Source: a virus. Taken from it: 59,031 bases of DNA. Shown here one piece after another: positions 8,899 to 50,392 of the stretch. The notes below the pieces were generated by a model. The model was not told the origin of the DNA. It saw only the letters and a program-made list of their open reading frames with translations, and ran no database searches. How positions within the stretch are numbered: the stretch's first letter is position 1; every line of letters begins with the position of its first letter. The stretch lies in the IMG/VR virus record IMGVR_UViG_3300016474_000052, positions 1 to 59,031 of that record. One strand, given 5' to 3'. Made by a program: the position numbers and the translations under genes.

Positions 8899-8901
8899 GT
8901 C

Positions 8902-11900: not shown

Positions 11901-12270
11901 AATGTGGGGGACGGCGCAACAAAGTTGGATATTTGACATAAACAATGGTGTCGCAGGTTTTGCATGGCAGGCAAATTCAATAAGCGTCAACTTTTTGGAA
12001 GCTGGTTCCGTTTCATTAAATGTTTGGAGCCATTTGGCGGTGACTAGGCAGGCTAATACGTTTAGGTTGTTTGTAAATGGAAATTCAACGGCCTCATTGC
12101 CGTCAAGTAATAATTCACTAACGACATCCTTTAGTGTCGGTGCTTATGACAACGGAGCAAGCGGAAACTTTGCTGGTTATATATCTAACTTGCGTATAAC
12201 AAAAGGTGTTGCTCGTTACACCTCCAACTTCAATACGAACCTCCCACCCGGACCCTTCCCACTAGGCTAA
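8902..12270 (+). CDS. fibre/receptor-binding-type protein with five LamG (Laminin_G_3-like) repeats
   Basis: 1122 aa. Five repeats of FT(I/V)E(A/F)W(x)Y...WNH(I/V/L)A(V)...(Y/F/W)(L/I/V)NG...GY(I/L)SN(L/I)R(V/I/F).KG... Visibly A/T-rich versus the rest of the genome. Confidence 0.75.
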   Translation: MSKFTGNIIRLPAVTPTQNSASGVYTLDDQFTAQSSGTWPIVRDQYFNYTTLLLTGAVQGTAYPNPVTQPYSFLSDASTNNFVVSPYGDVSARPFNPYLNSYSNYFTGSGSTYLSIASSADLQLTNSTVFTIEAFIYWTGTTGTQQGIINKRGSSATQEWGLIINSTGKLVFTNTTTDYTGGTTLNQNRWNHIAVSSDGTNIAVYLNGSRDSTPTAATGIVSSTNDVLIGYQTTTANPYTGYISNLRVVKGTQLYSGTSYPVPTAPLQAVTNTSLLTCLSNRFLDTNTQTTAKTITVSGSPAVSQNSPFVSYDTTNGSGYFDGNDYLLSTATQVIPSGSFTVEAWAYPTVSTDGYIVAQGTSGNSARFAVGIETNAWYTQIGATRVTSTAAPVINAWTHVAVTFNGATLTLYINGQSVGTPASTSTNAQNATVRIGSLGPADWAALYWTGYINSVRVSNTVRAISVPTAPYTTDANTSLLTLQTRAPATNNGFIDSSPNNFVVTRNGNTTQGSFSPFSQTGWGNYFNGSSNLQLAQTSAFQPGTGDFTIEAWVNFSASNSMIIAVYNQGCAFYVKSTGFLAFAQDSVAERLVASTAFPLNQWNHVAVVRSSSNLTIYQNGTAVGSTANSNNLTGIGSTVTVGSGNALTQGATGYISNIRFVNGQALFTGAFTPSVAPINSTTVGSTGSGVPTQTITGTVALLTCQSNRFKDNSPNNYTITLGGSPSVQAFSPFAPAQSYIPSQIGGSGYFDGTTDYLTTPASSIFDFAAGQAFTVDFWFYQTTSATVAITQGGGNTFSIDVTMGSSGSINYGKAGVANIISASASIPISSWNHLVISRNTGNQSRMWLNGVSIGSSSSDSYSFNNAVQYIGSNANPGNYVTGYLSGFRVLKGTALYDPTSSSNITVPTAPPTAIPNTSLLLNFTNGGIVDATGKNNLETVGNSGVQTTVIKYGNGSMYFDGTSDYLLRPYSDLLNINSGDFTIEAWVYPTVNKTFSTVAAMWGTAQQSWIFDINNGVAGFAWQANSISVNFLEAGSVSLNVWSHLAVTRQANTFRLFVNGNSTASLPSSNNSLTTSFSVGAYDNGASGNFAGYISNLRITKGVARYTSNFNTNLPPGPFPLG

Positions 12271-16881: not shown

Positions 16882-17279
16882 GTTCAGCGACCAAGTCAGA
16901 TCCGGCCAAATGGAAGCGCATCGTCGCCTCTGTTAAAGCCTCCGGTAAGGGCGGTGATCCAGGCGAATGGAGCGCCCGTAAGGCTCAATTAGCGACTCAG
17001 AAGTACAAAGCCTCAGGTGGGGGTTACAAAGGGCCTAAAAAGGCGGATAATTCGCTCTCAAAGTGGACCAGCGAGGATTGGGGTACAAAATCCGGCAAGC
17101 CATCCACGCAAGGGCCTAAGGCCACCGGAGAACGGTACCTGCCCCGGAGAGCGCGAGAGGCGCTTTCGTCTGCTGAGTATGCAGCCACCACACGCGCTAA
17201 ACGTGAGGGTACCAAGACCGGTAAGCAATTTGTCGCTCAACCCTCAAAGATCCGCGAGAAAACAGCAAGGTACCGATAA
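16878..17279 (+). CDS. hypothetical basic protein
   Basis: 133-aa Lys/Gly-rich ORF (..WSARKAQLATQKYKASGGGYKG..). ATGA-coupled to the upstream gene. Confidence 0.55.
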   Translation: MSSATKSDPAKWKRIVASVKASGKGGDPGEWSARKAQLATQKYKASGGGYKGPKKADNSLSKWTSEDWGTKSGKPSTQGPKATGERYLPRRAREALSSAEYAATTRAKREGTKTGKQFVAQPSKIREKTARYR

Positions 17280-17908
17280 TGGCCGCTCAGATGACTTACG
17301 ACACGCTGGTCAATGACGTGCGGACCTACTTGGAGCGCACTGATCAGTCTACGCTCGAGAAAATCCCAACATTTATCATGCTGGCTGAGTCCATCATCTC
17401 TGATGAGCTTAAGATTCTTGGCCAGCAGCAAGCCGTCTTGTCGACTTTAGTCGTAGGAGACCCTGTTATTCCGAAGCCTGCCCGTTGGCGCAAGACAACT
17501 TCGATGAATATCACGGTAAACGGCGAGAAAAAGCCCGTTTTGCTGCGTAAATATGAGTATTTGCGCAATTATTGGCCCGATCCGACACAAACCGGTGAGC
17601 CAAAATACTATGCGGACTACAACTTCAACAACTGGTTGATCGCACCTACCCCTGATGCGGCCTATACGTTCGAAGTTCTGTACTACGAGAAGGTCCAACC
17701 ACTGGATGAGACCAATCAGGTGAACTTTTGGACCGAAAATGCGCCTCAAGCCATGCTCTACGGCACCTTATTGCAGGCCATGCCGTTTTTGAAGAACGAT
17801 TCTCGCGTCCAACTATGGCAAGCCATGTACGACCGAGCAATTCAGACGCTGAAGCTTGAGAACGATACGCGCACGATCGACAGGCAGACGCAAGTAAGAG
17901 AGGTCTAA
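17279..17908 (+). CDS. putative neck/head-completion virion protein
   Basis: 209 aa. Sits at the start of the nozzle/internal-protein block. Pattern ..YLER..IPTFIMLAE..I...L.. resembles head-tail connector families. Weak call. Confidence 0.4.
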   Translation: MAAQMTYDTLVNDVRTYLERTDQSTLEKIPTFIMLAESIISDELKILGQQQAVLSTLVVGDPVIPKPARWRKTTSMNITVNGEKKPVLLRKYEYLRNYWPDPTQTGEPKYYADYNFNNWLIAPTPDAAYTFEVLYYEKVQPLDETNQVNFWTENAPQAMLYGTLLQAMPFLKNDSRVQLWQAMYDRAIQTLKLENDTRTIDRQTQVREV

Positions 17909-19117
17909 ATGACAACGTATACCAGCGCATTCACCGGTCAGGTCATTCAGCCTACCGATGTCTCCTATCGCTCGATCACACTAACGGCTGATACGACCCT
18001 ATCCTGGCCGGTTGAGGTTGATACCTCAGGCAATTACGCCGCCAGGATCATGAACGTCTCGGCCTCTTCGGCTTCTCTCAGCCTTTTAATGCCACCTGCC
18101 AATCAGACCTCGGTAGGCACTGATGCGCTCATTCGAAACACGGGAGCTAATACTTTTACCGTCAAGGACTATGCAGGCGGGACCATCGTTTCGATTGCAA
18201 GCGGCGAAGCTAAGTACATTTACATCACAGCCAATTCAACCGCTGCAGGCACTTGGTCGACTATTGCATTCGGTGTTGGTACCTCTAGCCCTGATGCCTC
18301 AACACTTGCAGGCAATGGCCTGTTAGCGATTGCTTCAACGCTTAATCAGGCTCACCCAGTCACAACGATTGCAGCGACCTACACAGCCACAGCAAGTGAT
18401 CGAGCCCTGTCCTATGTCTGGAATGGCGGCGCAGGCACTATCAACCTGCCTTCGGCTGCTTCGGTAGGCGATAACTGGTTCTTCTTGCTGCGAAATGGTG
18501 GTTCAGGCCTCTTAACTGTTGATCCCAATGGCTCGGACCTGATCAATGGCGAAGCAACGCTTACGATGCAGCCTGCAGACTCTGCGATCATTCTATGCTC
18601 AGGCGTTAGCTTTTATACGATCGGCCTTGGCCAATCAACGACCTTTGCCTTCACACAGCTTACCTATCCTGTCGTCTCGGGGACTTACACCCTCACGCCT
18701 ACGCAAGCCTCCAACACGATCATTAAGGTCACAGGTACGCTTTCAGGATCGGTGAATATTGTCGTCCCAGCGACGGTTCAGGTTTACTACGTCTTAAACG
18801 CCACGACAGGCTCGGTTACCTTCACGACAGGGGTCGTAGGGGGCCTTACAACGACGATCTCAGCCGGTGCGCAGTCTATCCTTGTCTGCGACTCTGTGAA
18901 CGTCCTGAACGCCAATAGCGCGATTGTCGGGGCCCTTTCTCTGGAGCTTGTTAACGGGACGGCCTCAGTGCCTGCACTTCGCTTTAACGCAGAGCCCAGT
19001 ACGGGTATCTATCGAAGCGGCGCAGGCGAACTGAACGTCTCCGTCCTTGGAACTAAGATCGGGACCTTTAGCTCATCCGGCTTTACGACGACGCTGATCT
19101 CTGGAGGTTCGATCTAA
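17909..19117 (+). CDS. virion structural protein (fibre-attachment or tail-associated)
   Basis: 402 aa, Ser/Thr/Gly-rich. C-terminal PALRFNAEPSTGIYRSGAGEL motif resembles motifs seen in podovirus fibre proteins. Confidence 0.5.
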   Translation: MTTYTSAFTGQVIQPTDVSYRSITLTADTTLSWPVEVDTSGNYAARIMNVSASSASLSLLMPPANQTSVGTDALIRNTGANTFTVKDYAGGTIVSIASGEAKYIYITANSTAAGTWSTIAFGVGTSSPDASTLAGNGLLAIASTLNQAHPVTTIAATYTATASDRALSYVWNGGAGTINLPSAASVGDNWFFLLRNGGSGLLTVDPNGSDLINGEATLTMQPADSAIILCSGVSFYTIGLGQSTTFAFTQLTYPVVSGTYTLTPTQASNTIIKVTGTLSGSVNIVVPATVQVYYVLNATTGSVTFTTGVVGGLTTTISAGAQSILVCDSVNVLNANSAIVGALSLELVNGTASVPALRFNAEPSTGIYRSGAGELNVSVLGTKIGTFSSSGFTTTLISGGSI

Positions 19118-20940
19118 TGACTGAAAAAGTCATCTCGATCAATACCAAGCCCGGAATACGCCGGGACGGTACAACCCTGGACGGCGATCAATACTCTGAT
19201 GGCCAATGGGTTCGCTTTCAACGAGGAAGGCCCAGAAAGACCCAGGGCTACAGTCGTATCTCCCAGCAGATCAGAGGGCTTGTCCGCGGGATGTTTGTCG
19301 ATTCCACAAACGGTATCAATAACATCTTCACGGGCTGGTCAGGCGGCGTACAAGTCATCGGTGTCGATAACAACGGCGTCGGATCAGGCGTCTCTGACTT
19401 TACCTTCAATGGCCAAGTCTTAACGCTTGGCGTCATTGTTCCTGGCAGCGGATATACCACGGGCACTTATAGCAACGTCGCCTTAACTGGCGGCGCAGGC
19501 ACCGGCGCAAAGGCCACTATCACGGTGGCTGGCGGTGTTGTAACCACTGTCACCCTAACTCAAGGCGGTGTCGGTTATGCGGTAGGTAACTCACTGACCG
19601 CGGCAGCTTCAACGATTGGCGGAACGGGAGCGGGTTTCTCTATCCCTGTTGCAACGATCGCATCAAGCTTTTCTGCTGATTCCACGAATCTTTATCAGTT
19701 CGACACTTCCTATGACGTTACGGGCGGTGTCAATCTATTGCTTGCGCATCCTGGCCATAACCTCACTGAGATTGACAGCACAGCCGATACGCCTGTCCTT
19801 TATGGGCCGATCAACGGGACCGTGCTCTCAGCTTTGAGAGATATTGAAGGTACGTCGCCGACGGGTAATACGATCTCGGTCTCGGGTGGTGTCGTTGCCT
19901 TGCACCCCTACATCTTTGTTTATGGCGATGCAGGGCTGATCAAGAACAACTCTGCAGGCAAGCCTCTTGATTGGAACAGCGCTGACGCTAATGAGACCAA
20001 CGTCGCAACCGGAAAGATCGTAAAGGGCCTGCCTGTCCGAGGTGGTACCAATGCGCCGTCTGGTTTGTTTTGGTCGCTCGACTCACTCATTAGGGTGTCT
20101 TACCTTGGTGGCGTTGGTACGCCTGCCCAGTTCTGGCGCTACGACATCATCTCCTCGCAGTCTTCGATCCTTTCATCGCAGTCTGTTATCGAGTACGACG
20201 GCATTTATTACTGGTGCGGCGTCGATCGATTCCTGATGTACAACGGTGTCGTCCAGGAAATTCCTAACGACATGAACCAGAACTATTTCTTCGACAATCT
20301 GAACTATGCGCAACGTCAGAAGGTCTGGGCGTGCAAGGTCCCCCGGTACGGTGAGATCTGGTGGTTCTATCCTCGAGGGTCGGCTACCGAGTGTACTGAC
20401 GCAGTCATTTACAACGTCAGAGAAAAGACTTGGTACGACGCAGGCTCTGCGCCTGGGGCTTATCGTTCTTCGGGTTACTTCTCAAACGTCTTTCGCTATC
20501 CGGTCATGGCCGGCACAACGAACTACTCGGGCTACATCAAGCTTTGGCAGCATGAGATCGGCTATGACGAGGTTGATGGCCCGAACATTACTGCTATTCA
20601 GTCCTCATTCACAACGCATGACCTGTCGTGGGTTACTGGCAACCCAGCACAAGAGGTACCCATCGGGGATAACTTCTGGACCCACTTTGAGCGCGTAGAG
20701 CCTGACTTCCTGCAGGTAGGGGACATGAACCTCTATGTGATTGGTAGACCCTATGCTCAGGCCGCTGATGTCACGTCAGACGCCTATCCATTTAGCCCGA
20801 CGACGACTAAGATTGACATGCGAGAGCAAAGGCGTGAGATACGACTCAAGTTTGAGAGCAATACCGTGAACGGCAACTATCAAGCCGGTCGCATCTTGTT
20901 GTCTGCCGATATGGGCGACGTCAGAGGCTACACGCCATGA
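19117..20940 (+). CDS. tail nozzle-like protein (T7 gp12-like beta-propeller pattern)
   Basis: 607 aa. ..YDGIYYWCGVDRFLMYNGVVQEIP..GEIWWFYPRGSATECTDAVIYNVREKTWYD.. resembles podovirus nozzle/tail tubular B proteins. Has a Gly-rich GYTTGTY..GGVGYAVG insert. Confidence 0.45.
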   Translation: MTEKVISINTKPGIRRDGTTLDGDQYSDGQWVRFQRGRPRKTQGYSRISQQIRGLVRGMFVDSTNGINNIFTGWSGGVQVIGVDNNGVGSGVSDFTFNGQVLTLGVIVPGSGYTTGTYSNVALTGGAGTGAKATITVAGGVVTTVTLTQGGVGYAVGNSLTAAASTIGGTGAGFSIPVATIASSFSADSTNLYQFDTSYDVTGGVNLLLAHPGHNLTEIDSTADTPVLYGPINGTVLSALRDIEGTSPTGNTISVSGGVVALHPYIFVYGDAGLIKNNSAGKPLDWNSADANETNVATGKIVKGLPVRGGTNAPSGLFWSLDSLIRVSYLGGVGTPAQFWRYDIISSQSSILSSQSVIEYDGIYYWCGVDRFLMYNGVVQEIPNDMNQNYFFDNLNYAQRQKVWACKVPRYGEIWWFYPRGSATECTDAVIYNVREKTWYDAGSAPGAYRSSGYFSNVFRYPVMAGTTNYSGYIKLWQHEIGYDEVDGPNITAIQSSFTTHDLSWVTGNPAQEVPIGDNFWTHFERVEPDFLQVGDMNLYVIGRPYAQAADVTSDAYPFSPTTTKIDMREQRREIRLKFESNTVNGNYQAGRILLSADMGDVRGYTP

Positions 20941-21167
20941 CGCAGTATTACGATCCCCGGAACATCGAATGGCCTTACTGGAGTGCTTTGATTGCTGAGC
21001 AGTACGAAGCGCAACAGCTTATGTGGCCAGTCCCCGAGGATCGGTGGCAGGACTTCGCTCTGTCTATTTGCTCGATTGCGTTGTTTTCCAACTATGGCGT
21101 ACCTTCTCCAGCCGGGTTTAGCCGGTGGCAGGACTGGGCGCTTGCATTCAATAACGCGGTGAACTGA
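20937..21167 (+). CDS. hypothetical small protein
   Basis: 76-aa Trp-rich ORF with an ATGA overlap at each end. Confidence 0.55.
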
Positions 21168-24100
21168 TGCCTTTTAGAGAGAATATCGGCGGCCTGCAAT
21201 CTGAGCAGGAACTTGATGAGCAAGGGCTTAAAGGATTGCCCGTTAGCTCTCAAACCACTTCGCCTCTTCAGCAGGCGGCAGTTCAGCAATCGACAGTTCA
21301 GCCCACGTCTTTGCGATTTGACTTCAATAAAGACCCAACAAACGCGGCCAATATTCAGAATATTGCTAATCAGCTTGCAACCTCAGGCAAGGGTCTGATC
21401 GGTACGCAGCTTGATCCTTATGCGCTTGAGCAACTGGGTTTTGCTAAGAACCCCATCTACTCTCAGGGCGAGGGTAGCGATGCTCTTACCAATCCTTCGG
21501 TTTGGTCTGCCGACAAAAAGCTTGTTGGTTACGACAACGAAGGCAACCCGCTTTATGAGAACCTGGGGACGTATTCGACCTTTGCAAACGCTTATGACAT
21601 TGGCAACAAAGGAACGCTGCTAGGTCAGAACATCACGGTCGATGACACCGGCAAGATTGTTAACGTTGGCTTAGGCACTTCTCAACGAGGCGGAACGCTC
21701 TTAGAGAATTTATCCCCGATTCTCAACATGGCCGCCATGGTTGTTTCGGGGGGTGCTGCAGGCCTGGGCCTTTCACCACTGCAGGGTATGGCCGCCTCTA
21801 CAGCCTTAAAAGCACTTGGCGGGGCGGATCTTGAAAGCCTGATTAAGAACGCAGCAGCAACTTATGGAATCAATACTGGCCTTGATATGGCCGCCACTGA
21901 GATTGCCAATGCCTCCGGACTTGATAAAGCGCTTGTCGACAAGGCGCTGAAAACTGCTTACAGCGCTTCACAATCGAAGAACCCGTACGAATTTTTGTCT
22001 GCCGGCATAAAGACCCTGGCCTCAGGAAGTCCAAATGTTATTGACGAATACAACGTCACCGGCGGAGAAGGAACTCAATTAAGCACAGTTACCGGCGACC
22101 TTGGAAATGATTCGGTAGTTAGTGGTTCGGGACCTCTTGATTATGTGATTGGAGACGATTCGCTTTCCGGTGGCTTGCAGAAGGTTTCTGATGTTGGCGG
22201 AGGCTCTTTCCGCGCTGATGTTTCTGGCGTGGCTCCTGATTATCGCGAAATGAGCGGCAAGATTACGTCTACAGGCGGCATATCGTCAGCTATCAATGAT
22301 CTTAAAAGCGCGGGTTATTCAGCACAGGACATCGCTGCTTATCTTGGCACACATATCGGTCTTGATATAAGCCCTGGATCGCCTGCTTATCAAGACATGG
22401 TTGCAGCTTTCGGGCCACCGAACGCCGCGGGTCAGTTTGGTGGCGGAACAGTCATCAACCTTGGTGATACGGGTGCAACCGGCGGACTTGGGGGCGCCAC
22501 AGCTATCGTAGGCGGCAGCCCAACCGGTGGTGGAACGCTTGGGTCTCAAGGCGCAGATTTTGATCTTGCACCGGTGTTTGATGCGCTTGGTATTCCTGGT
22601 TTCACGCTTTCAAGCTCTAACAACATCGGCACCGATTCGTCCGGCAATCTGTATAGCGTTGTTAACAAATCTGATGGCTCAGCCACGATCGTTGACTTAA
22701 ATGATGAGACCTTTCAAGTCGAGTTAACGCCTGAGCAAAACAACGCCCTCAAGCAAAAAGACATAGCAAAAAACATCACAACGGATCAGTTTGCCAAGCA
22801 ATTACCCTATAACGAGTTTACGCAAAGCTTCCCTTATGTCGATGAGTTCAATAACGTCAAGTACGCTACCAAGCAGGAACTCAATACCGATCCAAACCTG
22901 AAGTGGGTTGAACAGATTTACTTCCCCGAGCCCATCACAATTGACACGTCGTTCAATGTTGATGACCCAAACAAGCCCAAGGTCACGGGCCCAGCCGGAG
23001 GGGGAACTTCTGGCGGCGCGACCTCTGGAGGCGGTCTTTCCCAGGTAACTGGCGATACTAGCCAAGACACTTCTGGAGGGGCGTTGTCGCAAATAACCGG
23101 TGGTACCCCTGGCGGGGGTACTCCTGAAGGCGGGTTATCTCAGATTACCGGTGGGACCCCTGGAGGCGGAACACCAGCGGGTGGCACCCCTGGCGGCGGA
23201 ACCCCAGGAGGAGGAACTCCAGGAGGAGAAACTCCTGGCGGCGGGACCACTGGAGGCGGAACGCCTAGCGATGGCGGAGGGTTGGAATTGACGCAATCCG
23301 AGGCCATGAAGAAGCTTGGCGATGAGTTGCTGGCACAAGGAAAGTCACAGGAAGAGGTTGCTAACAATCTTAACAAACAGCTTTCGGATGCAGGCTCCAA
23401 TCTTCGCGTTGGCTTTACGATGGTTGGTGGTGAGCCAAGAACGAATATTTATGAAAGCAAGGTCGTAGACCGCACAAGAAGCGGTGCCGACTATGGCGCT
23501 ATTACAAGCGGCCTGTCGCAAAAGTTCGGTGATAGCAGACTAGGAACCCAAGATCTTGCTTCTGACATCAACACAAGGATGCGCACGGTTAATGGCAAGG
23601 TCTATGACACGATGGAAGAGGCGATCAGGGCCAGGAATCCATCCGGTGTTACGGGACCTGCTGGCGATAAACCTAAAGCCTCTGATTACGCTTACCAATA
23701 CATTTTCAACAAGGTCTATGGCCGTCCAGGAACGGATGAAGAGCTTAAGTATGCAAGAACCCGATCCCTGTCGGATCTTGAAAAAGATCTCGGCGGGTTC
23801 TTGAGTGCTTGGAAAAGCTCTCAACCTCCAACTGGCAATTTATCTGTTGACCAGCAGATCAATGACATAACCGGTGGAATTGACCAAGCCACTCAGGACG
23901 CAGTCAACGCTGAGGTTTCCGGCGTAAAGACGGGAACAGGAACAGGAACGGGTACAGGCACTGGAACAGGTACGGGAACGGGTACGGGTACTGGAACGGG
24001 AACAGGGACTGGTACCGGCACGGGCACAGGTACAGGGACTGGCACCGGGACAGGAACCGGAACTGGTACGGGTACAGGGACAGGAACCGGCACAGGAACC

Positions 24101-25417
24101 GGTACAGGAACTGGGACAGGAACAGGTACGGGTACAGGCACTGGTACAGGCACCGGTACGGGAACTGGGACAGGCACAGGCACCGGAACCGGTACTGGAT
24201 CTGGAACAGGCACTGGAACAGGTACAGGTACAGGAACGAGTACAGGCACTGGCACCGGAACCGGTACAGGCACCGGTACGGGTACAGGGACCGGAACAGG
24301 CACCGGTACGGGAACAGGTACCGGAACTGGAACTGGCACTGGGACAGGCACTGGGACCGGAACTGGGACGGGTACCGGAACGGGTACGGGGACTGGGACC
24401 GGAACCGGTACTGGCACTGGGACAGGCACTGGGACCGGTACAGGTACAGGGACCGGAACAGGCACCGGAACAGGCACCGGGACAGGAACCGGAACTGGAA
24501 CTGGAACTGGGACTGGAACTGGCACCGGTACGGGAACAGGTACCGGAACCGGAACGGGTACAGGGACTGGTACAGGTACGGGAACGGGTACGGGAACAGG
24601 GACCGGAACCGGAACGGGAACAGGGACTGGGACTGGTACGGGCACAGGCACTGGAACTGGCACTGGTACAGGGACCGGAACTGGAACGGGAACAGGAACC
24701 GGAACAGGAACCGGTACGGGCACAGGAACCGGCACAGGAACCGGCACAGGAACCGGCACGGGAACAGGAGGCGGCGCTTACCAACCCTCTTATCAAACCG
24801 GATTAAGTAGCCAGTACAAAGGATTCAAGAATGTCCCATCACTTACACCCACGACTTTGGCGGCGGCTCCGATCATGAAAGAGAAAACCATCTCCAACCT
24901 CCCTGAGGGATTGGTCCAGCAACTGGTGCGCATGGGTATCAGCAAGACCCTGATCAATCAGATCGCTAAGTCAGCCAAGATTGATTTGCTTGAAAATGAG
25001 GCCCCTACGGACGTCAAAGGTGGCCTTGAGCAGATTGACGCTGACGAGCTTATGGGTGGTCAGCCCAAGACAGGTGGCCAACCGGATAAACCCGAAGAGA
25101 AGGCTATGGGCGGTCTTATGAAGATGGCTGAGACCAATGGCTTTGCAGGAACGCCAGATTCACGGAGAATGCAAGGTTATGCGGTTGGTGGTGCTGGAGG
25201 CGGTCAAGACGATCTTATTCCCGCTCTGTTGGCTGACGGTGAGTACGTTATGGACGCCGACATTGTTGCAGCGCTTGGTGATGGATCTTCGAAGGAAGGT
25301 GCCGCAAAGCTTGATAAGTTCCGCGAGGCGATCCGTAAACACAAGCGTTCAGCACCTTTGAACAAAATTCCGCCAAAGGCTAAGTCGCCTCTGGCTTACT
25401 TGAAAGAAGCGAGGTAA
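21167..25417 (+). CDS. large internal virion/ejection-type protein with giant Gly-Thr repeat
   Basis: 1416 aa, first of four consecutive large genes ending with an SLT protein. Contains a GGTPG-type tract and a 279-aa (GT)n tract. C-terminal [27 protein letters not shown] motif. Confidence 0.6.
22987..23283 (+). repeat. in-frame Gly/Thr/Pro low-complexity tract (GGTPGGGTP-type and GGLSQ(I/V)TG repeats)
   Basis: Reads ..[84 protein letters not shown]. Confidence 0.85.
23930..24766 (+). repeat. in-frame hexanucleotide (GGN-ACN) repeat encoding a 279-aa Gly-Thr dipeptide tract
   Basis: Uninterrupted TGTGTG.. from 23930 to 24766 in the 21167 frame. Only two deviations were read (GS, TST). All four Gly and all four Thr codons are interleaved. 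Confidence 0.95.
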
Positions 25418-25419
25418 TC

Positions 25420-26436
25420 ATGCCTTTCGATTGGACTCAAGGGTCAGCCCCACCGCCTGTCGATATTACGCAGTCGCAAAAGACAACAGCGCCTGAGTTC
25501 TATACCGATTATCTTAAAGAAATTGGTAAAGCAGGCGAGGGCTTTTTAGGTGCAAATGCGCCCAAGTACATCGGTGAACAAGCACTTCAGACTGAAGCCT
25601 TTGATCAAGCCAAAGGGAAATCGTTCGGCGCTCAAAATTACCTAGATCAGGCATCCCGCCTTGGCGGCTTGTCTGGTGTAACGACTGCTCAACAGCTTGA
25701 AGGCTATCAAGTAACCGACCCCACGACCGGCCAGAAGGTCACGATGGGTGGCGGTTACATGAACCCCTACATCAAAGACGTCGTTGGTGAGATTGAAAGG
25801 CTTGGCCAAAGGCAGCTACAAGAGGCTTTGCCATCCATCACTGGCGCGGCTGTAGGCTCTGGCGGCTTTGGTAGTCAAAGGGCTCTGCAGTCTGCAGGGA
25901 TTGTCGGCAGGGATGTCCTGGCGGATATTCTTGGCAAGCAGACTGGCGCCCTTGCCTCTGGTTATGACGCAGCCACCAAAGCGGCGCAGACAGATCTTGC
26001 ACGTTACCTTCAAGGTGCAGGCGTAATGGGCGGCCTGGGTCAGATTGCCTCGGGTACCAACATCGCAGAATTGCAGAATCTGGCCTCATTAGGAGCCCAG
26101 CAGCAGGCGATCGAGCAAGGCGAAGAGAACTTCCCATTGCAAACAGCACAGGCTGTCTCAGGGCTTCTGAGGGGCTATACGATGCCTACTGAAACGGCGT
26201 CGACTTACAAGGGTCCTCTGGCAGGTCTTCAATACAGTCCGTCTGGCTTACAGACCCTGGGATCTATTGCTGGCTTATTTGCGCCTACTGGCTCAAGTGG
26301 CCAGGGCATCTCTGCCGCACAAGGTCTAATCAATGCTGGCAAAGGGCTGGTCGACACACTGAAAAACATGGGGCTATTTAGCTCAGATAGCGGCCTGCCG
26401 AATACCGGGAATATTGAAGACCCGACTTGGACTTAA
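25420..26436 (+). CDS. internal virion/ejection-module protein
   Basis: 338-aa Gly/Ala/Gln-rich ORF located between the large internal proteins. No domain recognised. Confidence 0.5.
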   Translation: MPFDWTQGSAPPPVDITQSQKTTAPEFYTDYLKEIGKAGEGFLGANAPKYIGEQALQTEAFDQAKGKSFGAQNYLDQASRLGGLSGVTTAQQLEGYQVTDPTTGQKVTMGGGYMNPYIKDVVGEIERLGQRQLQEALPSITGAAVGSGGFGSQRALQSAGIVGRDVLADILGKQTGALASGYDAATKAAQTDLARYLQGAGVMGGLGQIASGTNIAELQNLASLGAQQQAIEQGEENFPLQTAQAVSGLLRGYTMPTETASTYKGPLAGLQYSPSGLQTLGSIAGLFAPTGSSGQGISAAQGLINAGKGLVDTLKNMGLFSSDSGLPNTGNIEDPTWT

Positions 26437-26448
26437 TCGGAGATAACG

Positions 26449-28203
26449 ATGGCTCTCGAAATATTGCAGGGCGAGGATGCCGAAGAGATGGGTGGCGGCA
26501 CGGGCATTACGCCCCCTTCTGGCTTTCAAATACCCGTCAATCGACAGCCTTCTCCGGGAGGGCTGGGACAGGCCGCTCCTGACGGTCTTAGTTCAGCTAA
26601 ACAGGACTACCTAAAAGCCACGCAAGACATGATCAATGCTCTCGAGCAAAGGATCAGTGGCCAGGGTTACGACATATCTCGACTGCTTTTTGCTTTTGGC
26701 CAACCTACTGCAACTGGATCGCTTGGAAGCGCTTTTGCCAATGTGGGCGCAGAAGCGACAAGGCAGCGTGGTGAGCAAGAGAAGATGATGCCCTCCATGA
26801 TGAAGATGCGGACCGAACTGGCCGCTAATCGTCTTGCTATGGCCCAACAAGAAGAGGCCGATCGTATTGCGAGTATGTACGGGGTTGGGGAGCCCGGGGC
26901 TAATGTTCAAGCCGCCCCTGGATCGGGAGCCTCTGCTGAAGCCGCGGTTGGCAACCCGCAGGCGCGTCGTGAGATGGACGTTGATCCCTTGCGTCTCTTG
27001 GCGATTACAAGGAGGCTTGGTCCCGCAGGCGAGAAGCTTTATAGCCAGATCATGCAAGCCAGAGAAGACTATCGCAAAAACTTCTTGCCTGGAGGCGAAG
27101 GTTCTTTCTATAGACCCGATACCGGTCAGCGAATCTATAACCCAGTTGAACTTGCCAAGCCGATTGAGCGTCAGTTAAACCTTGGTAACTTTAGCGGCGA
27201 GATCAAGATGCCTCTTGGCGACTGGATGAAGTACGACGAGATTATGGATAAAGGCGGTCAGACAGAGGCCGCCAAGTTCATCGTCAGCAAGATCCCAGGC
27301 CTTGGCGAAAGGATCGGGGCAATCGCTCCATCAAGGCCACTCGATTCAACACCTATAGCACCTGCTCAGCAACCTGCTATGCAGCCATCTCAAGGGGCTC
27401 CTGCGCAAGGGCCAAGATTCGAGACTGCAGGCGAAAGAGAGCAGCGCCAAAAGGCAGAGTCCAAGCAGACCGAAGAGAACATCTCGATGCTGACCGGGGA
27501 AGTCAAGGAGGCTAGAACTCCAATCCTTACCCGCTACGACAAGGCTGACTCCCTACAGCAAGAAGCCAAGCAGATGATGCAACTAGCCTCGGCGTACCCC
27601 TATGCGGTTGGCATTTTCAATAAGCCTGGAGGTCAGTACGCACTTGCGCAATTCCTCAAGGAAGGTATTCGCGTTGGCAGCACGAACGTCACCATCGGAG
27701 GCTTTGAAGATGGCATGAGACGACTCGTGAGAGCCAACCCTGAGATGGTTGCAAGGGTTGCAAAAGAACGCGGCATCTCGAACGACGAGGCTCAAAAATA
27801 CCTGCAGCAGCAAGGCTTAGATGCAGCGTCAATGCTCTTGCAGTCTGAGCGCAGACTTGACGCTCTGTTAAACAAGGCCGAGCGCAAGGGCGAGGGTCAG
27901 GTATCCAACTACGAGCGGGTCCTGTTCAGCCAGCTTTTGCCAAGCCTCTCGAATGACCCGATCAAAGCCTATCTCGCAAAGACCCTGGCCCTTCAAGAGA
28001 TGGCCAAGTTTGATAAGCAGGTTGGCGATCTCTTAAGAAAACGCTCTGAGGCTAAGCAATACGACCCAAGGCAGATGTATGACTCGGATGAGTACAAGCG
28101 TATTCGTGCGAATTACGTCAACTCCCTTGAGGGTACGATGCGTGAGTTCTTCCCTGAGACAAGGGGCAGGCTTGCCGAGGCTAGAAAAGTAGCGGGGGTC
28201 TAA
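26449..28203 (+). CDS. internal virion/ejection-module protein
   Basis: 584-aa charged, helical-looking ORF directly preceding the SLT protein. Confidence 0.5.
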   Translation: MALEILQGEDAEEMGGGTGITPPSGFQIPVNRQPSPGGLGQAAPDGLSSAKQDYLKATQDMINALEQRISGQGYDISRLLFAFGQPTATGSLGSAFANVGAEATRQRGEQEKMMPSMMKMRTELAANRLAMAQQEEADRIASMYGVGEPGANVQAAPGSGASAEAAVGNPQARREMDVDPLRLLAITRRLGPAGEKLYSQIMQAREDYRKNFLPGGEGSFYRPDTGQRIYNPVELAKPIERQLNLGNFSGEIKMPLGDWMKYDEIMDKGGQTEAAKFIVSKIPGLGERIGAIAPSRPLDSTPIAPAQQPAMQPSQGAPAQGPRFETAGEREQRQKAESKQTEENISMLTGEVKEARTPILTRYDKADSLQQEAKQMMQLASAYPYAVGIFNKPGGQYALAQFLKEGIRVGSTNVTIGGFEDGMRRLVRANPEMVARVAKERGISNDEAQKYLQQQGLDAASMLLQSERRLDALLNKAERKGEGQVSNYERVLFSQLLPSLSNDPIKAYLAKTLALQEMAKFDKQVGDLLRKRSEAKQYDPRQMYDSDEYKRIRANYVNSLEGTMREFFPETRGRLAEARKVAGV

Positions 28204-29451
28204 ATGGTCGATCTTGAAAAGCTTAACGAGTCCCAGCGACGCATAGCCGATAAGGTCATCAAGGCCGCTGAGCAAGAGGGCGTTGATCCCCAACTAGCCC
28301 TTGCCGTTGCCCAAGTCGAGTCTGGCTTCTCCCAGGCTGCAAAGAGCCCTGCCGGAGCCATTGGCGTCATGCAGCTTATGCCTGCCACCGCTAAGGGTTT
28401 AGGCGTTAATCCAAAGAAGATGGACGACAACATCCGCGGCGGGGTCATGTACCTCAAGGAAATGCTCGACTTTACTGGTGGCGATGTCCGAAAGGCTTTG
28501 GTCGGTTATAACGGCGGGCCAAAGCTTGCCAAGATGGACAACCCGCCCAACATGGATTATGCCGATCAAGTCAATTCGGTTTATCCATTTGACGCTGTTG
28601 GCCAAGCAAGAAGACTTAAGCAGCAGCTTGAAGGCGGTGCTACCGCGCAGCCAAGCCAAGAGGGCGAACCGCCCGAAAGCGAAGCAGTTGCTGAAGCAAG
28701 AAGGCTTGCTCAGCAGATCGATCAAATGCAGATCAATCAGCCCGATGATCCTGCCATTGGCCGTGCCATGTCTGCAGCCGCTGGAGCCCCTGCTGGAGCC
28801 CTTTTAAGCGGGATTGGAGCCGATGTTAAGCGTGGTATGCAGCAAAGGCGCTTTGATGCCTTCCAAGAGGCTCAGAAGGCCGCTAGGGACCAGAACCTCG
28901 CAAGGGTTGCTGACGGCATGACTTCTGGCGCAAAGTGGGGTAGCAAAGTCACAGGCTATGTAAAGCCTGGGGTCGAGACCGTCTCTGAGGCAGCTACCGA
29001 TTATCGAAGGGCTATGCCTCAAGGCAAGATCTCAGGAAGGATGGCCAAGCTTTACGGGATTCCAGGCCCTGATGAACCTGCACAGCTTTCCCAACGTCTT
29101 ATTGATCGCGCTAAGAACGCACCCGTCATGGGAGAGCCCCGCCAAGGCTTGCCTGTAGAGCGTGCAGCGCGTCCTAGCGGCAGGATGGCAGGAATGCTTA
29201 AAGGTACTGCGATGGGCGCTCTAGGCGGCGCAGGCGCAGGCTATTCGGCCTATGACGCCTATGACCGTTACATGCAGGGCGATTACCCTGGCGCAGCTTT
29301 AAGTGCGATCGGCGCCTTAGGTGGTGCTGCAAGCCTTATTCCGACACCGGTAACCCGCGGGGTTGGACTTGCAACAACTGCAGCAGTCCCAGCCTTAACC
29401 GAGCTATACGACCGCTATAGGCCTCAGCGGACGATTACGTTGCCCGAATAA
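28204..29451 (+). CDS. internal virion protein with N-terminal lytic transglycosylase (SLT) domain
   Basis: LALAVAQVESGFSQAAKSPAGAIGVMQLMPATAKGLG..GGVMYLKEM is the canonical SLT motif set with the catalytic Glu in ES. Gly/Ala-rich hydrophobic C-terminus. Confidence 0.85.
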   Translation: MVDLEKLNESQRRIADKVIKAAEQEGVDPQLALAVAQVESGFSQAAKSPAGAIGVMQLMPATAKGLGVNPKKMDDNIRGGVMYLKEMLDFTGGDVRKALVGYNGGPKLAKMDNPPNMDYADQVNSVYPFDAVGQARRLKQQLEGGATAQPSQEGEPPESEAVAEARRLAQQIDQMQINQPDDPAIGRAMSAAAGAPAGALLSGIGADVKRGMQQRRFDAFQEAQKAARDQNLARVADGMTSGAKWGSKVTGYVKPGVETVSEAATDYRRAMPQGKISGRMAKLYGIPGPDEPAQLSQRLIDRAKNAPVMGEPRQGLPVERAARPSGRMAGMLKGTAMGALGGAGAGYSAYDAYDRYMQGDYPGAALSAIGALGGAASLIPTPVTRGVGLATTAAVPALTELYDRYRPQRTITLPE

Positions 29452-30232
29452 AGTATTGGGCCCTTTTGGACTTTTCCTCCGGAGCGGATGTAAGCATAAG
29501 CTCCGGGGTTCCAAGGCTCCTTGCCATCTTGAAGAACAGGCTCTCCGGGTTGTTGGAATAAGCCTCGCCTGCTATGGCGATCGTCATGAAGTCAATGATG
29601 GCTTTTGAGTTGCGGTCATAAAAGTTCTCTGGCTTTGTTTTGTGGACTGGCCGATGTCCTTCTATGCCCGCGCATGAGATTGTCGATTCTGGGCTGATTT
29701 CGGCCCATTGCTGGGCAAGTCTTGTGTCATCGGTTATGACATGGGCATCACCCGATTCGCCGTAAAGATCAAACAAGCTTGATCCTTCGTTGTATCGATC
29801 GGTCCCTCGCAAATGCACGACCACGTCATGCTTTTTGACTTTGCCTGCAATTTCAAAACTGACCCGTAGGTGCCTTGCAAGCAGTGGCATGTTCCAAACC
29901 CTGAAGCCAATACCAGAGTGTACGATCACGTCATAAGTGCTTGGCGAAAGCTTTTCCTCCTTGATGTCGTATACCCAATCGCCCAAGCTATTTTGGCCCA
30001 AAGCCTCCCAGATGGGGGGCCATACTGACTTGCCGATGAGCGATATTTTTTCATCCGTATACGGGACATCTACGAGATGGAAGTAAGAGCAAAACCGGCC
30101 GTTCCATACATTGTCGAGCCAGTTAACCTTGAGTATTCGATTGTGCTTGAGCGCGAAATCCAAGCAGTAAGACAGGCATTGCAGGCGGTCGCCTAGCCCC
30201 TCATACCCGTTGCTGATAACGTACTTTTCCAT
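29435..30232 (-). CDS. putative glycosyltransferase (fucosyltransferase-like GT-B; GT11/GT23/POFUT-type motifs)
   Basis: 265 aa. Three motifs in the expected order: N-terminal GLGDRLQCL..A..HNRIL, central VVVHLRGTDRY (the HxRxxD motif), C-terminal IDFMTIAIAGEAYSNNPESLFF. Last gene of the - strand block, overlapping the 3' end of 28204..29451 by 17 nt. Confidence 0.45.
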   Translation of the reverse strand: MEKYVISNGYEGLGDRLQCLSYCLDFALKHNRILKVNWLDNVWNGRFCSYFHLVDVPYTDEKISLIGKSVWPPIWEALGQNSLGDWVYDIKEEKLSPSTYDVIVHSGIGFRVWNMPLLARHLRVSFEIAGKVKKHDVVVHLRGTDRYNEGSSLFDLYGESGDAHVITDDTRLAQQWAEISPESTISCAGIEGHRPVHKTKPENFYDRNSKAIIDFMTIAIAGEAYSNNPESLFFKMARSLGTPELMLTSAPEEKSKRAQYFIRAT

Positions 30233-50300: not shown

Positions 50301-50392
50301 AGTCCTCCAAGAGCCGTCCCTTGAATCGAATGCAAGTTGACACCGACGCTATGCGTCTTGAAATGATGAGGAAATCATGGCGATCGAAATGA
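47372..50392 (+). CDS. polyvalent-type large virion protein with PARP/ART-like (H-Y-E class) motif block
   Basis: 1006 aa, directly upstream of the portal. YHGSPHRFKKF..GEGAQAYGYGLYFAENPDVAKTY resembles the H-G-[ST] .. G-x-G-x-Y-F-A .. Y motifs of PARP-like ARTs. Also carries a conserved-looking LFIEELQSDWAQEGRKKGF block. Confidence 0.5.
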   Translation: MNPLTKFLGVKGLSNGGKLPPGIKRATDRAKESKSVLPVAGARQARQAIQGYLGMDPSFSVMDPEAQALESAYRGGETASVLGDLVASLTPFAAASAAAKANQVPGLAQLIAYHGSPHRFKKFDASKIGTGEGAQAYGYGLYFAENPDVAKTYQPRSPQYEQKLLKKYNAAEARRDYTTMEILEDAMMHRSPEEILQRYTNISEGYTPAHAKAAKDFASWYAKNLPEVGGMYKVDIPDEKIAQMLDWDKPLSQQPAAMQVARKVFNDPQRKSAGFPSITDEEIGNLTGQDLYQAMTTTRGGLQPGASKSLLQEGIPGIQYLDQASRDAKQGTRNFVVFPGEEQNIKMLDIDGVPQKADGGLIRMSNGGDRFMGKTPKRGVSSLPGYGEGDLLKDIEAAYPRVAGAIDTAATLAPIFGRALVSPAVSAGTFVKEAIKSGDPRDTSPLQRASEASEEFITGDIRPFRTQLGPEYASATLEGLESALQASKLPPILPQAWTASLMPGVTAATKQAAKTAGKEMLRPIDQAMMGQGPLAGAFSAVSPMNVTAPVSKLGFYNPIEETATTLQRKQGPGQAFLNEFTKAGISKQRLEDAGLAQKLAAAPNITREEVQAMTKGTMPDVEEVVLSRSVIPPYMKGFANLHMPDLNVNDYRQINQLRKIADERYQKALAENDLDAAEFAMKAEEDINKFSRTHSYGTKPGERLTEFHEYQEPGGKNYREVLLKVPVKRVSEEEARVILNARPEDKLSAYDIDFASRKANPEFRSAHWMDPNVISHIRMNDRVDADNKNVLFIEELQSDWAQEGRKKGFGKDVPQGPFVKNTNEWVDLSLKNIIKRAVDEGYDRVAFIDGYKSYLRFPQGADGESTEAGMRKFYDEIIPGRLKALVGKDNVRTIPGITQQRPLDVSLQGDRYYVVDADTDIAIPDHPGFRSLERAEQYLDELYSKSKSMDQIGFDITPEIREKFSAPIPYKRGGAVKSSKSRPLNRMQVDTDAMRLEMMRKSWRSK

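Follow-up and report, generated by a model that had tools for sequence, protein, structure and literature searches.

A long, rapidly replaced Thr-Gly tract in a putative podophage ejection protein may serve as a disordered spacer

Known ejection proteins of podoviruses include gp14, gp15 and gp16 of T7 and gp7, gp20 and gp16 of P22. They belong to one of the least understood parts of phage infection, and we know of no characterised member reported to carry a dipeptide repeat hundreds of residues long. Flexible low-complexity segments are familiar from other systems: the (EGGGS)n linkers of filamentous-phage g3p, engineered (G4S)n linkers and the disordered Gly-rich translocation domains with which colicins thread porins all tether functional modules, in the phage and colicin cases of proteins crossing the bacterial envelope. 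The Drosophila clock protein PERIOD, a eukaryotic nuclear protein, contains an uninterrupted, length-polymorphic (Thr-Gly)n repeat of about 14-23 pairs written in mixed synonymous ACN/GGN codons. Stalks and linkers that are O-glycosylated include mucin-like domains, the Pro/Thr linkers of cellulases and glycosylated virion proteins of mycobacteriophages. In phage SU10, gp20-24 were identified as ejection proteins by mass spectrometry, and their genes lie downstream of those for nozzle and needle (PMC9509320). Ejection proteins are mosaic, fast-evolving and poorly conserved and must partly unfold for exit (PMC8954989), while the tape measure proteins (TMPs) of long-tailed phages are expelled and thought to form a trans-envelope channel (PMC13033339).

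The window analysed here (the whole stretch of 59,031 nt) is the complete ~59-kb genome of a freshwater podophage. Its gene order of adaptor, nozzle and cassette is that of SU10, and the cassette has a lytic transglycosylase component. The relevant features are as follows.

17279..17908, plus strand: SU10-type tail adaptor protein (PF24175, E 1.2e-26; phrog_2941).
19117..20940, plus strand: podovirus tail nozzle protein (PDB 8zkk/8zkm "nozzle gp16", E 1.4e-7; phrog_3287).
21167..25417, plus strand: putative ejection (internal virion) protein carrying the tract, an open ORF (1416 aa, 138.7 kDa, pI 4.6).
21707..21796, plus strand: moderately hydrophobic Gly/Ala-rich segment, candidate membrane-active (aa 181-210).
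23098..23270, plus strand: second, shorter low-complexity repeat of GGTP(G/A/E) type (aa ~645-702; Tandem Repeats Finder periods 15, 30 and 45).
23840..24796 (318 aa) and 23893-24759 (288 aa), minus strand: antisense ORFs over the tract.
23930..24775, plus strand: (Thr-Gly)140 followed by GG (aa 922-1203); the G/T/S-only run ends at nt 24775.
24200..24241, plus strand: interval holding both non-TG residues.
24776..25171, plus strand: first part of the C-terminal region (aa 1204-1335), about 75-83% conserved among close relatives, with a low-confidence fold.
25172..25282, plus strand: short tape-measure-like motif (aa 1336-1372).
25283..25414, plus strand: basic C-terminal tail, conserved family-wide (last 60 aa, pI 9.6).
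25420..28203, plus strand: two further putative ejection-cassette ORFs (338 aa and 584 aa), their order kept in relatives L001, L002 and L003.
28204..29451, plus strand: SLT lytic-transglycosylase protein (415 aa; PF01464, E 3e-22), the last gene of the cassette.
29435..30232, minus strand: predicted NodZ/FUT8-like (GT23-type) fucosyltransferase-superfamily enzyme (265 aa), convergent with the cassette.

The tract-bearing ORF is thus the first gene, and encodes the largest protein, of a four-gene cassette that lies downstream of adaptor and nozzle and ends in the SLT transglycosylase, which also matches phrog_342, "internal virion protein with endolysin domain". No homology to characterised proteins was detectable for the 338-aa and 584-aa products. 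This context fits the description of the tract protein as an internal virion protein in the initial annotation, which had been made from the sequence letters.

The tract itself, (Thr-Gly)140, spans residues 922-1201 (nt 23930..24769), that is 140 dipeptides or 280 residues, and takes about 0.85 kb, roughly 1.4% of the genome. The initial annotation had placed it in this frame and read two deviations, GS and TST; they correspond to Ser for Gly (AGT, 24239-24241) and Ser for Thr (TCT, 24200-24202). The C-terminal peptide quoted there is likewise present in the translation. All four Gly codons (GGA 54, GGT 35, GGC 30 with the two trailing Gly included, GGG 22) and all four Thr codons (ACA 47, ACC 34, ACT 32, ACG 26) are used, as the annotation had stated, with a third-position entropy of 1.93-1.96 against a maximum of 2 bits. 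At first and second codon positions 558 of 560 are intact, whereas third positions are near-random. This bears out the proposal that the peptide repeat is selected: the counts show that the composition of the tract peptide is under strong purifying selection, with synonymous sites free. The tract is a clean case of such selection on a low-complexity peptide, its synonymous sites saturated and its non-synonymous sites almost untouched. By physical estimate the uncharged peptide (about 22 kDa) has a contour length of about 96-107 nm and a coil size of about 10 nm. The antisense ORFs are by-products, because (ACNGGN)n is free of stop codons in all six frames.

The scrambling of codons had been taken to mean that long perfect DNA repeats are avoided, as expected if slippage and recombination are selected against. 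We counted repeated k-mers in the tract against 1000 synonymous-codon shuffles. Repeated 12-, 15- and 18-mers were commoner in the tract than in the shuffles; for 18-mers the count was 78 versus 17.6+-9, a value reached by 0 of 1000 shuffles. Three quarters (75%) of 107 other viral TG tracts, whose third-position entropy runs from 0 to 1.97, also showed an excess (z>2), and 0% showed a deficit (z<-2); family tracts of all repeat types behaved likewise. Avoidance of long repeats therefore stands as a description only, and selection against slippage or recombination is not supported. The excess fits segmental duplication followed by synonymous drift. The tract grows by duplication of segments and drifts later under peptide-level selection; its scrambled codons are the look of an old tract and no evidence of designed repeat avoidance. 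Scrambled codons in peptide repeats thus need no special anti-slippage selection.

It had also been feared that the length of such a repeat might be wrong in a short-read assembly. We compared nt 23400-25300 with Logan's independent k=31 contigs for the source run (X1), a freshwater metagenome. One contig of 8447 nt (depth 15.8) spans the interval without a single difference or gap. Exact DNA repeats within the tract are at most 29 nt long and none reaches 31 nt, so the de Bruijn path through it is unambiguous at k=31. (Thr-Gly)140 is not an assembly artefact.

Comparison of tract length among related phages, as proposed in the initial annotation, showed that both length and repeat type vary widely. 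At the same site L003 has 44 TG dipeptides and a degenerate T/S/Q/G zone, L134 and L126 have (SG)52-86, L136, L139 and L144 have (TQTG)n, L127 has (SG)n(TG)n and L150 has (TG)n(ST)n; a hydroxyl residue is retained in every variant (TG, SG, TQTG, ST). In 66 family members at greater distance no such tract was found. Among the relatives tract length runs from 0 to about 190 residues, and across the family from 0 to about 280. The occurrence of (SG)n, (TQTG)n, mixed tracts or none shows that what is selected is composition, namely Gly together with a small hydroxyl residue, rather than sequence or exact length.

In the C-terminal flank the window and L003 share a third-position identity of 0.72, but no register of the tract exceeds 0.40 (baseline 0.26+-0.05). 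Strain X5 is identical until about 40 nt into the tract and then differs at 87 positions over the 398 nt of tract covered. The L003-type tract of 264 nt, on the other hand, is identical in three assemblies and thus stable within its lineage, and the tail genes are conserved between close relatives whose tracts differ, from 44 to 140 dipeptides. Judged by these alignments, the tract is replaced much faster than its flanks diverge. Tracts of more than 100 residues nevertheless recur at this site across lineages whose C-termini are only 40-80% identical. The site is a mosaic boundary, where middle regions without homology to each other meet a shared C-terminus. For 32 of 97 viral TG proteins, a pattern-blind DNA scan recovered the arrangement of variable N-terminus, TG tract and conserved C-terminal module. 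Because 78 cellular proteins of many phyla likewise contain (TG)n tracts in frame, this type of tract is generic.

The remainder of the protein offers few handles. Neither the full-length protein nor its N-terminal 921 aa gave a PHROG, Pfam or PDB sequence match, and a set of 1.84 billion proteins contains only 7 representatives of the N-terminal 600 aa. The segment at aa 181-210 gives the sole 19-residue Kyte-Doolittle peak of its kind in the protein (1.51, below the usual transmembrane threshold) and is conserved in L003 and P0122. The C-terminus places the protein, encoded between the nozzle and SLT genes, in a family defined here by a module of ~80 residues with a DGE(Y/F)V signature and 26 invariant columns, which fall in the tape-measure-like motif and the basic tail. 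The family comprises 351 database proteins and at least 561 viral stretches. An AlphaFold2 model of the C-terminal region (pLDDT 56) was too poor for a structure search. The motif, G-x-G-x-G-(Q/R)-(S/D)-D-x-(I/L)-x-A-x-L-x-(D/N)-G-E-(Y/F)-(V/I)-x-x-A-x-x-V, matches six PHROGs annotated as tape measure (phrog_6090, 25241, 17300, 3547, 934 and 5448; E 5e-5 to 1e-2; 8e-8 for the Caulobacter orthologue), and the family profile matches the TMP of mycobacteriophage Douge (PDB 8zdo chain S) at two sites (E 2e-4). Neither the TMP PHROGs nor the Douge TMP matched outside these ~35 residues, which have no resolved structure in 8zdo.

We favour, with a probability of roughly 0.55, the explanation that the tract is a disordered, threadable spacer in a putative ejection protein. 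It would be a hypervariable, intrinsically disordered linker of Gly and a small hydroxyl residue. The protein would be packaged in the head and precede the DNA out through the tail channel, as TMPs do in long-tailed phages; it has the short C-terminal motif in common with them. An uncharged chain with small side chains and no stable fold could pack compactly (as the 10-nm coil) and thread a narrow channel. Since it could extend to about 100 nm, the tract could tether the N-terminal part, which contains a single hydrophobic Gly/Ala segment, to the basic module conserved at the C-terminus during envelope crossing. Its exact length would not be critical, and orthologues in which (SG)n or (TQTG)n stands in its place fit such a role. 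Many family members work without a tract, so it is not essential to the core function of the family. A spacer cannot easily be told from a tolerated, composition-filtered expansion, and the adjacent fucosyltransferase-like gene, together with the adjacency of such genes to TG tracts in unrelated viruses, suggests that the Thr/Ser hydroxyls may matter beyond solubility.

The neighbouring gene had been called glycosyltransferase-like, and this assignment held. Its family profile matches NodZ (PDB 2hhc) over its full length (residues 2-250; E 1.2e-9). Foldseek with an AlphaFold2 model of the product (pLDDT 84.6, pTM 0.85) returned NodZ (TM 0.67, E 3e-9), then FUT8, AtFUT1 and POFUT1, the last a protein O-fucosyltransferase (E 4e-3). 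The H-x-R-x-x-D nucleotide-sugar motif is kept, with H140, R142 and D145 of VHLRGTDR invariant. We conclude that the product is a predicted NodZ/FUT8-like member of the fucosyltransferase superfamily.

It is possible, if doubtful, that the tract is densely O-glycosylated and forms a mucin-like stalk, with this enzyme adding fucose or another sugar to Thr. Such a role would be compatible with a spacer: glycan would stiffen or protect the segment or make it adhesive, and the segment may then lie outside the virion. Besides the membership of POFUT1 in the superfamily, the retained hydroxyl in every repeat variant speaks for it. So do two unrelated large-virus contigs, L074 and L387, in which the gene of an enzyme homologue runs in the same direction as, and only 65-69 nt away from, an ORF encoding a membrane anchor, then (TG)30-150, then a globular domain. 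In distant family contigs of L025 and L063, a TG-tract protein and an enzyme homologue of 30-44% identity are 10-12 kb apart. Both features are rare, the enzyme being found in 74 of 2.9 million viral contigs; none of the 66 tract-less family members has it within 10 kb, and no homologue was detected in any deposited phage, including the tract-less RW/GB2A and MW202545. Yet 66 of those 74 enzyme-bearing loci lack any S/T-G tract within 9 kb, and Ser/Thr-richness at the tract-less ones is not above that of control loci. The enzyme is missing from the corresponding position in L134 and in seven tract-bearing family members whose flanks are ample, and the L003 contig is absent from the enzyme-bearing set. 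In the stretches searched, the enzyme was near 0 of 120 bacterial and only 2 of 120 viral TG-pattern loci. Within the family, phylogeny confounds the association, since seven cases belong to one clade. The gene is also encoded on the other strand and belongs to a separate transcription unit, and its nearest relatives, the GT23 enzymes NodZ and FUT8, fucosylate GlcNAc of glycans, not proteins. The homologues beside TG-tract proteins in two unrelated contigs keep O-glycosylation a live hypothesis. A wider proposal is more speculative still: that this viral enzyme family uses (Thr-Gly)n as a protein substrate, forming a two-part "viral mucin" in freshwater podophages and giant-virus-like genomes, here with a virion or ejection protein that bears a heavily O-glycosylated segment about 100 nm long. 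Modification of the tract by the fucosyltransferase, if true, would represent a new type of protein glycosylation in phages, shared with giant viruses.

Less probable again is a functionally neutral expansion at a permissive module junction, where selection would purge bulky, charged or aggregation-prone residues while length drifts. The variable length and repeat type, the mosaic boundary and the TG tracts of many unrelated viral and cellular proteins would all be expected, and low-complexity A/G/S/T regions are common in TMP-annotated proteins (PMC13585406). Against this stand the non-synonymous positions, intact next to saturated synonymous ones and with both exceptions conservative changes to Ser, a very strong constraint if the region had no role, and the 0.85 kb kept in a capsid-limited genome. 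The recurrence of tracts of more than 100 residues at one site also suggests repeated retention rather than accident.

That the ORF encodes a true TMP of a long-tailed phage, with the tract setting or adjusting tail length, is very improbable. The orthologue in Caulobacter phage GB2A is annotated "tail length tape measure protein", the record MW202545 carries the label Siphoviridae sp., and the C-terminal motif matches TMPs; the window, however, encodes an SU10-type adaptor and a podovirus nozzle, with no tail tube, sheath or TMP family among the 25 of 36 Pfam families listed for the 72 other ORFs. The TMP similarity is confined to about 35 residues, and conserved tail genes accompany tracts of 44 to 140 dipeptides. 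TMPs measure by an extended helix, which a Gly-Thr copolymer cannot form, so the tract would be unable to act as such a ruler.

Least probable of all is an assembly artefact or a constraint on the nucleic acid (for example GG-run structure every 6 nt): such tracts often break short-read assemblies, many contigs end in them, most database homologues begin just past the tract and the coding strand is strongly purine-skewed (24001-25000; AT skew 0.435, GC skew 0.163), but the reassembled contig is identical and even in depth, the L003 allele recurs across three samples, and orthologues swap TG for SG (TCN/AGY) or TQTG, which alters nucleotide periodicity and keeps peptide character.

In practice, TG-type tracts break short-read assemblies, split gene calls and, being stop-free in six frames, give spurious antisense ORFs. 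The family provides a natural series of one protein with TG, SG, TQTG or no linker, of 0-280 residues, in which it can be tested whether a disordered spacer matters for packaging, tail passage and envelope spanning.

Among known systems, the tract resembles O-glycosylated stalks in its hydroxyl at every second position, with a predicted glycosyltransferase gene close by, and the anchor-(TG)n-globular ORFs of L074 and L387 have the classic stalk architecture; most enzyme-bearing phages have no such tract nearby. With the PERIOD repeat it has (Thr-Gly)n in mixed synonymous codons in common, although with 140 pairs and without homology, a purely convergent likeness. With TMPs such as Douge gp16 the protein shares the ~35-residue motif, a hydrophobic Gly-rich segment and low-complexity tracts of small residues (PMC13585406), but its phage is short-tailed, with an adaptor, a nozzle and no tube that could be recognised. 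To characterised podovirus ejection proteins it has no detectable sequence or fold homology (Pfam, PHROG, PDB), and the SLT domain here is on a separate protein. It is nonetheless like those of SU10, T7 and P22 in being encoded in a block downstream of adaptor and nozzle together with a lytic transglycosylase, and in being large, fast-evolving, mosaic and expected to leave the head partly unfolded via a narrow channel (PMC8954989, PMC9509320). Like flexible Gly/Ser linkers, finally, the tract would be an uncharged, structure-free tether of small residues between modules, and its orthologues use (SG)n; at 280 residues it is roughly ten times longer, and its strict alternation and exclusive use of Thr are unusual.

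The (+) strand ORF at 21167..25417 is open throughout and encodes 1416 residues, among which 140 Thr-Gly dipeptides occupy residues 922-1201 (nt 23930..24769), a tract that the initial annotation had given as 279 residues. There is no break between dipeptides, GG follows directly, and two serines are the sole departures, one replacing a Thr (TCT at 24200) and the other a Gly (AGT at 24239). The tract draws on every Gly codon and every Thr codon, with a third-position entropy of 1.93-1.96 bits, and Tandem Repeats Finder returned only ~75% matches, at periods of 12 and 30. Because (ACNGGN)n is stop-free in every frame, two antisense ORFs across the tract are by-products of the pattern.

Features around the tract
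23098-23270: shorter second repeat, GGTP-type
23840-24796, antisense: ORF across the tract, by-product of the stop-free pattern
23893-24759, antisense: ORF across the tract, likewise a by-product

Positions 1-22 and 59010-59031 of the window are an identical 22 nt, as expected of an assembly closed into a circle, which makes the window a complete closed phage genome of ~59.0 kb. It encodes a large terminase, portal, capsid proteins, tail fibres and replication genes; no tRNA genes were found in it. An adaptor and a nozzle were recognized, and the order 3' of the nozzle is a 76-aa ORF, the 1416-aa ORF, a 338-aa ORF, a 584-aa ORF and a 415-aa SLT protein.

Features of the adaptor-nozzle-cassette region
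17279-17908: SU10-type adaptor (PF24175, E 1e-26)
19117-20940: podovirus nozzle (solved structure PDB 8zkk/8zkm, E 1e-7)
last of the cassette: 415 aa, SLT transglycosylase domain at the N terminus (PF01464, E 3e-22; phrog_342)

By synteny, the four ORFs at 21167-29451 are a putative ejection cassette. In SU10, virions contain gp20-24, which come after the nozzle and needle and include a transglycosylase, and genome-release intermediates lack them (PMC9509320). No deposited phage with near-identical DNA to window 17000-30000 was found, and neither the portal nor the 402-, 338- and 584-aa neighbours had a significant match in PDB sequence searches.

Elsewhere in the window, an HNH homing endonuclease gene (1293-1892; phrog_655, E 6e-18) lies within the structural module, flanked by an adaptor-like gene and tail-fibre genes. 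The C-terminal half of the 238-1287 product is SU10-adaptor-like (PF24175, E 7.5e-7), so that, with the adaptor at 17279-17908, the phage has two adaptor-family paralogues; a match of the same protein to discoidin (F5/8 type C) is weak and sub-threshold (21.5 bits, cut-off 28.2). Two very large fibre or receptor-binding candidates, of 857 aa (phrog_19943, E 6.5e-191) and 1122 aa (five matched stretches, several PHROG families), occupy 6325-12270, and the all-ORF Pfam scan gave one DUF7483 match (E 1.9e-108) and one concanavalin-like Laminin_G_3 match (E 1.4e-90). Just upstream of the portal gene, a 1006-aa ORF (47372-50392) has a sub-threshold match to PF18760 (polyvalent-protein ADP-ribosyltransferase; 24.6 bits, cut-off 31.2) and may be another packaged or ejected effector.

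Among deposited phages, relatives of the 1416-aa protein share its final ~80 residues only. MW202545 encodes one such relative, of 640 aa, and the Caulobacter Riverwalk phages another, of 581 aa, with the gene order preserved in both; their middles are of differing low complexity (Cys-rich; Gly/Ala- and Pro/Thr-rich), without a TG tract. At the site of the window's repeat, the orthologue in the spring-water phage (MW202545.1, 7282-9201) has its Cys-rich middle with many C-x-x-C spacings, and its C-terminal DGE(Y/F)V motif is present twice. The conserved C-terminal module has 26 invariant columns and 351 database homologues, and it occurs in at least 561 viral stretches, in proteins of 266 to more than 2000 aa. 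The final 60 residues of the 1416-aa protein are basic (pI 9.6). Tblastn with the N-terminal 921 aa against deposited phages gave no match, and aa 701-921 have no relative in IMG/VR. An exhaustive search of 1.84 billion proteins with the N-terminal 600 aa, in which a single Gly/Ala-rich segment is moderately hydrophobic (aa 181-210, peak 1.51), found 7 representatives, too few for a useful alignment; a word-indexed search, swamped by low-complexity words, gave 2. PDB sequence searches with the C- and N-terminal regions yielded nothing significant, and an AlphaFold2 model of the C-terminal 213 aa (45-sequence alignment; pLDDT 56, pTM 0.22) was unfit for fold search.

A pattern-blind IMG/VR scan for (ACNGGN)20 gave at least 120 stretches. 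In-frame TG tracts of 40-197 residues were present in 97 of the 120 listed, and 32 of these 97 proteins belong to the family carrying the C-terminal module, where the tract immediately precedes the C-terminal region. When metagenome members with C-terminal regions 76-83% identical were compared, as the initial annotation had proposed for related phages, length and repeat type were found to differ widely at this one site.

Linker site in metagenome family members
L134: (SG)52
L126: (SG)86
L136: ~33 TQTG units
L127: (SG)51(TG)27
L135: (TG)36...(TG)26
L142: (TG)65
L150: (TG)36(ST)16

More distant family members have no tract. What is conserved at the linker site is Gly plus a small hydroxyl residue, uncharged and unbulky, over ~100-300 residues. 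Between the window and L003, a close relative from IMG/VR, third-position identity is 72% in the flanking C-terminal domain (640 nt) and at most 40% between the tracts in any register (baseline 26 ± 5%); the middle of the protein (aa ~330-920) is non-homologous. In a strain from sequencing run X5, the sequence equals the window through the upstream flank and ~40 nt into the tract, after which 87 differences follow in the 398 nt of tract covered. Together, these two comparisons identify the tract as a mosaic boundary with turnover far faster than its flanks. The N-terminal ~950 nt are common to the window and L003 at 90% identity, while the middle of the gene and the tract (8374-8637 in L003) are not collinear. 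The (SG)n(TG)n junction of L127 has a recombinant-like appearance, and modules may be exchanged by crossover within tracts of this kind. As a type, the tract is generic: in-frame TG tracts of 40-142 residues occur in 78 cellular proteins spanning many phyla, and the phage C-terminal module is absent from all 78. When 56 non-family viral TG proteins were scanned against PHROG, most of the families matched had no assigned function, and no general functional theme emerged.

The mixture of codons had been read as a sign that DNA repeats are avoided. We permuted synonymous codons within the tract (1000 shuffles) and counted repeated k-mers. Repeated 12-mers (300 vs 207 ± 19), 15-mers (141 vs 64 ± 15) and 18-mers (78 vs 17.6 ± 9) were above every shuffle, and repeat-avoiding scrambling is not supported. 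Internal duplicates of 17-29 nt are scattered through the tract at many offsets, the longest at the upper end of the shuffle range (23 ± 3). Local avoidance is hinted at only by successive residues of one kind, which share a codon slightly less often than in the shuffles (59 vs 72.9 ± 7.2, P=0.03). The (SG)n and (TQTG)n tracts of relatives likewise have an excess of repeated k-mers over synonymous shuffles, and among 107 TG tracts from other viral contigs z exceeded 2 (excess repeats) in 75% and fell below -2 in none. The simplest account is growth via slippage or segmental duplication, followed by synonymous drift under peptide selection. Entropy among these 107 tracts spans 0-1.97, with as many as 21 identical adjacent hexamers at the low extreme, and the window's tract falls among the old, drifted ones. 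Codon entropy showed no significant trend with tract length (rho 0.15, p 0.12), a comparison biased by short reads, which cannot assemble long perfect repeats and so skew long assembled tracts towards scrambled ones.

The tract has a codon usage unlike that of the remaining genome (GGA 0.39 vs 0.17, ACA 0.34 vs 0.19, GGC 0.20 vs 0.46), and the enrichment of A-ending codons and depletion of GGC produce an AT skew of 0.435 at 24001-25000; a founder repeat unit, tRNA load or foreign origin are candidate sources of the bias. First and second codon positions are intact at 558/560, both exceptions being conservative changes to Ser, and third positions are near-random. Since conversion would homogenise third positions too, purifying selection on amino-acid composition is the only reading that fits.

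The best-supported reading of the tract, to which we assign a probability of about 0.55, is that it forms a thin spacer, disordered and without charge, within an ejection protein. For a chain of 282 residues we calculate a contour length of 96-107 nm and, when relaxed, a coil of ~10 nm. What the data show is that the tract is under selection, that it varies and where it lies in the genome; beyond this, we infer that such a chain could be packed in the head, would thread a channel a few nanometres wide, would be long enough to span tail and envelope, and would link the N-terminal part with the conserved basic module at the C terminus. Of the overall interpretation in the initial annotation, selection on the peptide, the internal virion context, the fit of a spacer and the identity of the glycosyltransferase are supported; codon scrambling as repeat avoidance is not.

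O-glycosylation of the tract, compatible with a spacer, is a tentative proposal. The glycosyltransferase-like gene at 29435..30232 (-), convergent with the cassette, matched only XG_FTase in Pfam as a single sequence, below cut-off (12.4 bits). A 25-sequence family profile, with invariant motifs G-x-G-D-R-L-Q and V-H-L-R-G-T-D-R, matches NodZ alpha-1,6-fucosyltransferase over its full length (E 1.2e-9), and the structure model (pLDDT 84.6, pTM 0.85) matches NodZ (TM 0.67), FUT8 and plant FUT1, and POFUT1 more weakly; the gene therefore encodes a fucosyltransferase-superfamily enzyme. In the close clade the enzyme adjoins the cassette with SG and TG tracts alike, and homologues (30-44% identical to other family members) lie 10-12 kb from the tract gene in two distant family contigs, those of L025 and L063. 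The enzyme is within 10 kb in 0/66 tract-less family members, and deposited phages have no detectable homologue. In two unrelated large-virus contigs, L074 and L387, a homologue is 65-69 nt from a TG-tract ORF. Against this, 66/74 enzyme-bearing viral loci have no such tract nearby, Ser/Thr-richness around enzyme-bearing loci is not above controls, the enzyme is missing at the corresponding position in eight tract-bearing family members, and it was found in the compared stretch of 0/120 bacterial and 2/120 viral TG-pattern loci. O-glycosylation is not general to TG tracts, and given these mixed results we keep it as a live hypothesis. The L074 (1811-3573) and L387 (6804-9849) ORFs comprise an N-terminal membrane anchor or signal, (TG)30 to ~150 and a globular domain, and are co-directional with the enzyme homologue; one of the two contigs is a giant-virus MAG, and the pairs look like an enzyme plus stalk protein.

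A neutral, composition-filtered expansion is hard to tell from a spacer, and we consider it doubtful. Much less likely is that the 1416-aa ORF is a true tape measure protein. The ~35-residue core of the C-terminal module matches six PHROG families annotated as tape measure, and its profile finds two sites in the mycobacteriophage Douge tape measure protein (PDB 8zdo, E 2e-4), both unresolved in the cryo-EM map (PMC13033339). This core match explains how the Caulobacter orthologue came by its 'tape measure' label. In phage GB2A, the annotation of gp065c (7477-9219; orthologues in RW/RLK/KcrB) as 'tail length tape measure protein' rests on a ~35-residue motif; gene order round gp065c is the window's adaptor-nozzle-cassette order, which suggests a podovirus-type ejection cassette. 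With an adaptor and a nozzle in the phage the label is unlikely to be correct, and it is probably misleading. A true tape measure is contradicted by the window's SU10-type adaptor and podovirus nozzle, and the Pfam families listed (25/36) for the 72 other ORFs include none for a tail tube, sheath or tape measure.

All sampled 31-mers of 23400-25300 are present in X1, the freshwater metagenome run from which the window derives, and an independent Logan contig from X1 (8447 nt, depth 15.8) spans this interval with 0 differences and 0 gaps. The longest exact repeat within the tract is 29 nt, so a k=31 graph has a single path and short reads fix the tract length. The 44-dipeptide tract of L003 is base-for-base the same in two further metagenome assemblies, L325 and L326. 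The caution that assembly may misstate repeat length is sound in general, as related-strain contigs in runs X2, X4 and X5 stop inside the tract, leaving exact lengths unreadable for those strains, but does not apply to the window. Most database homologues of the C terminus are 150-350-aa fragments beginning right after the tract. An assembly artefact, or constraint at the nucleic-acid level, is the least credible explanation, contradicted by the identical independent contig and by the (SG)n and (TQTG)n tracts in relatives.

Recent work has catalogued both low-complexity A/G/S/T regions and tandem repeats among TMP-annotated proteins (PMC13585406), and ejection proteins are mosaic and exit partly unfolded (PMC8954989). 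Our literature searches found no Thr-Gly repeats in phages, no dipeptide-repeat linker of such length described in phage ejection proteins, no description of the C-terminal-module family or of any link with a NodZ-like enzyme, and nothing on PDB 8ZKK. The Thr-Gly repeat of Drosophila PERIOD and Gly/Ser linkers are convergent analogues of the tract. Tape measure proteins precede the DNA through the tail channel and into the envelope, a behaviour that suggests a functional analogy with the 1416-aa protein.
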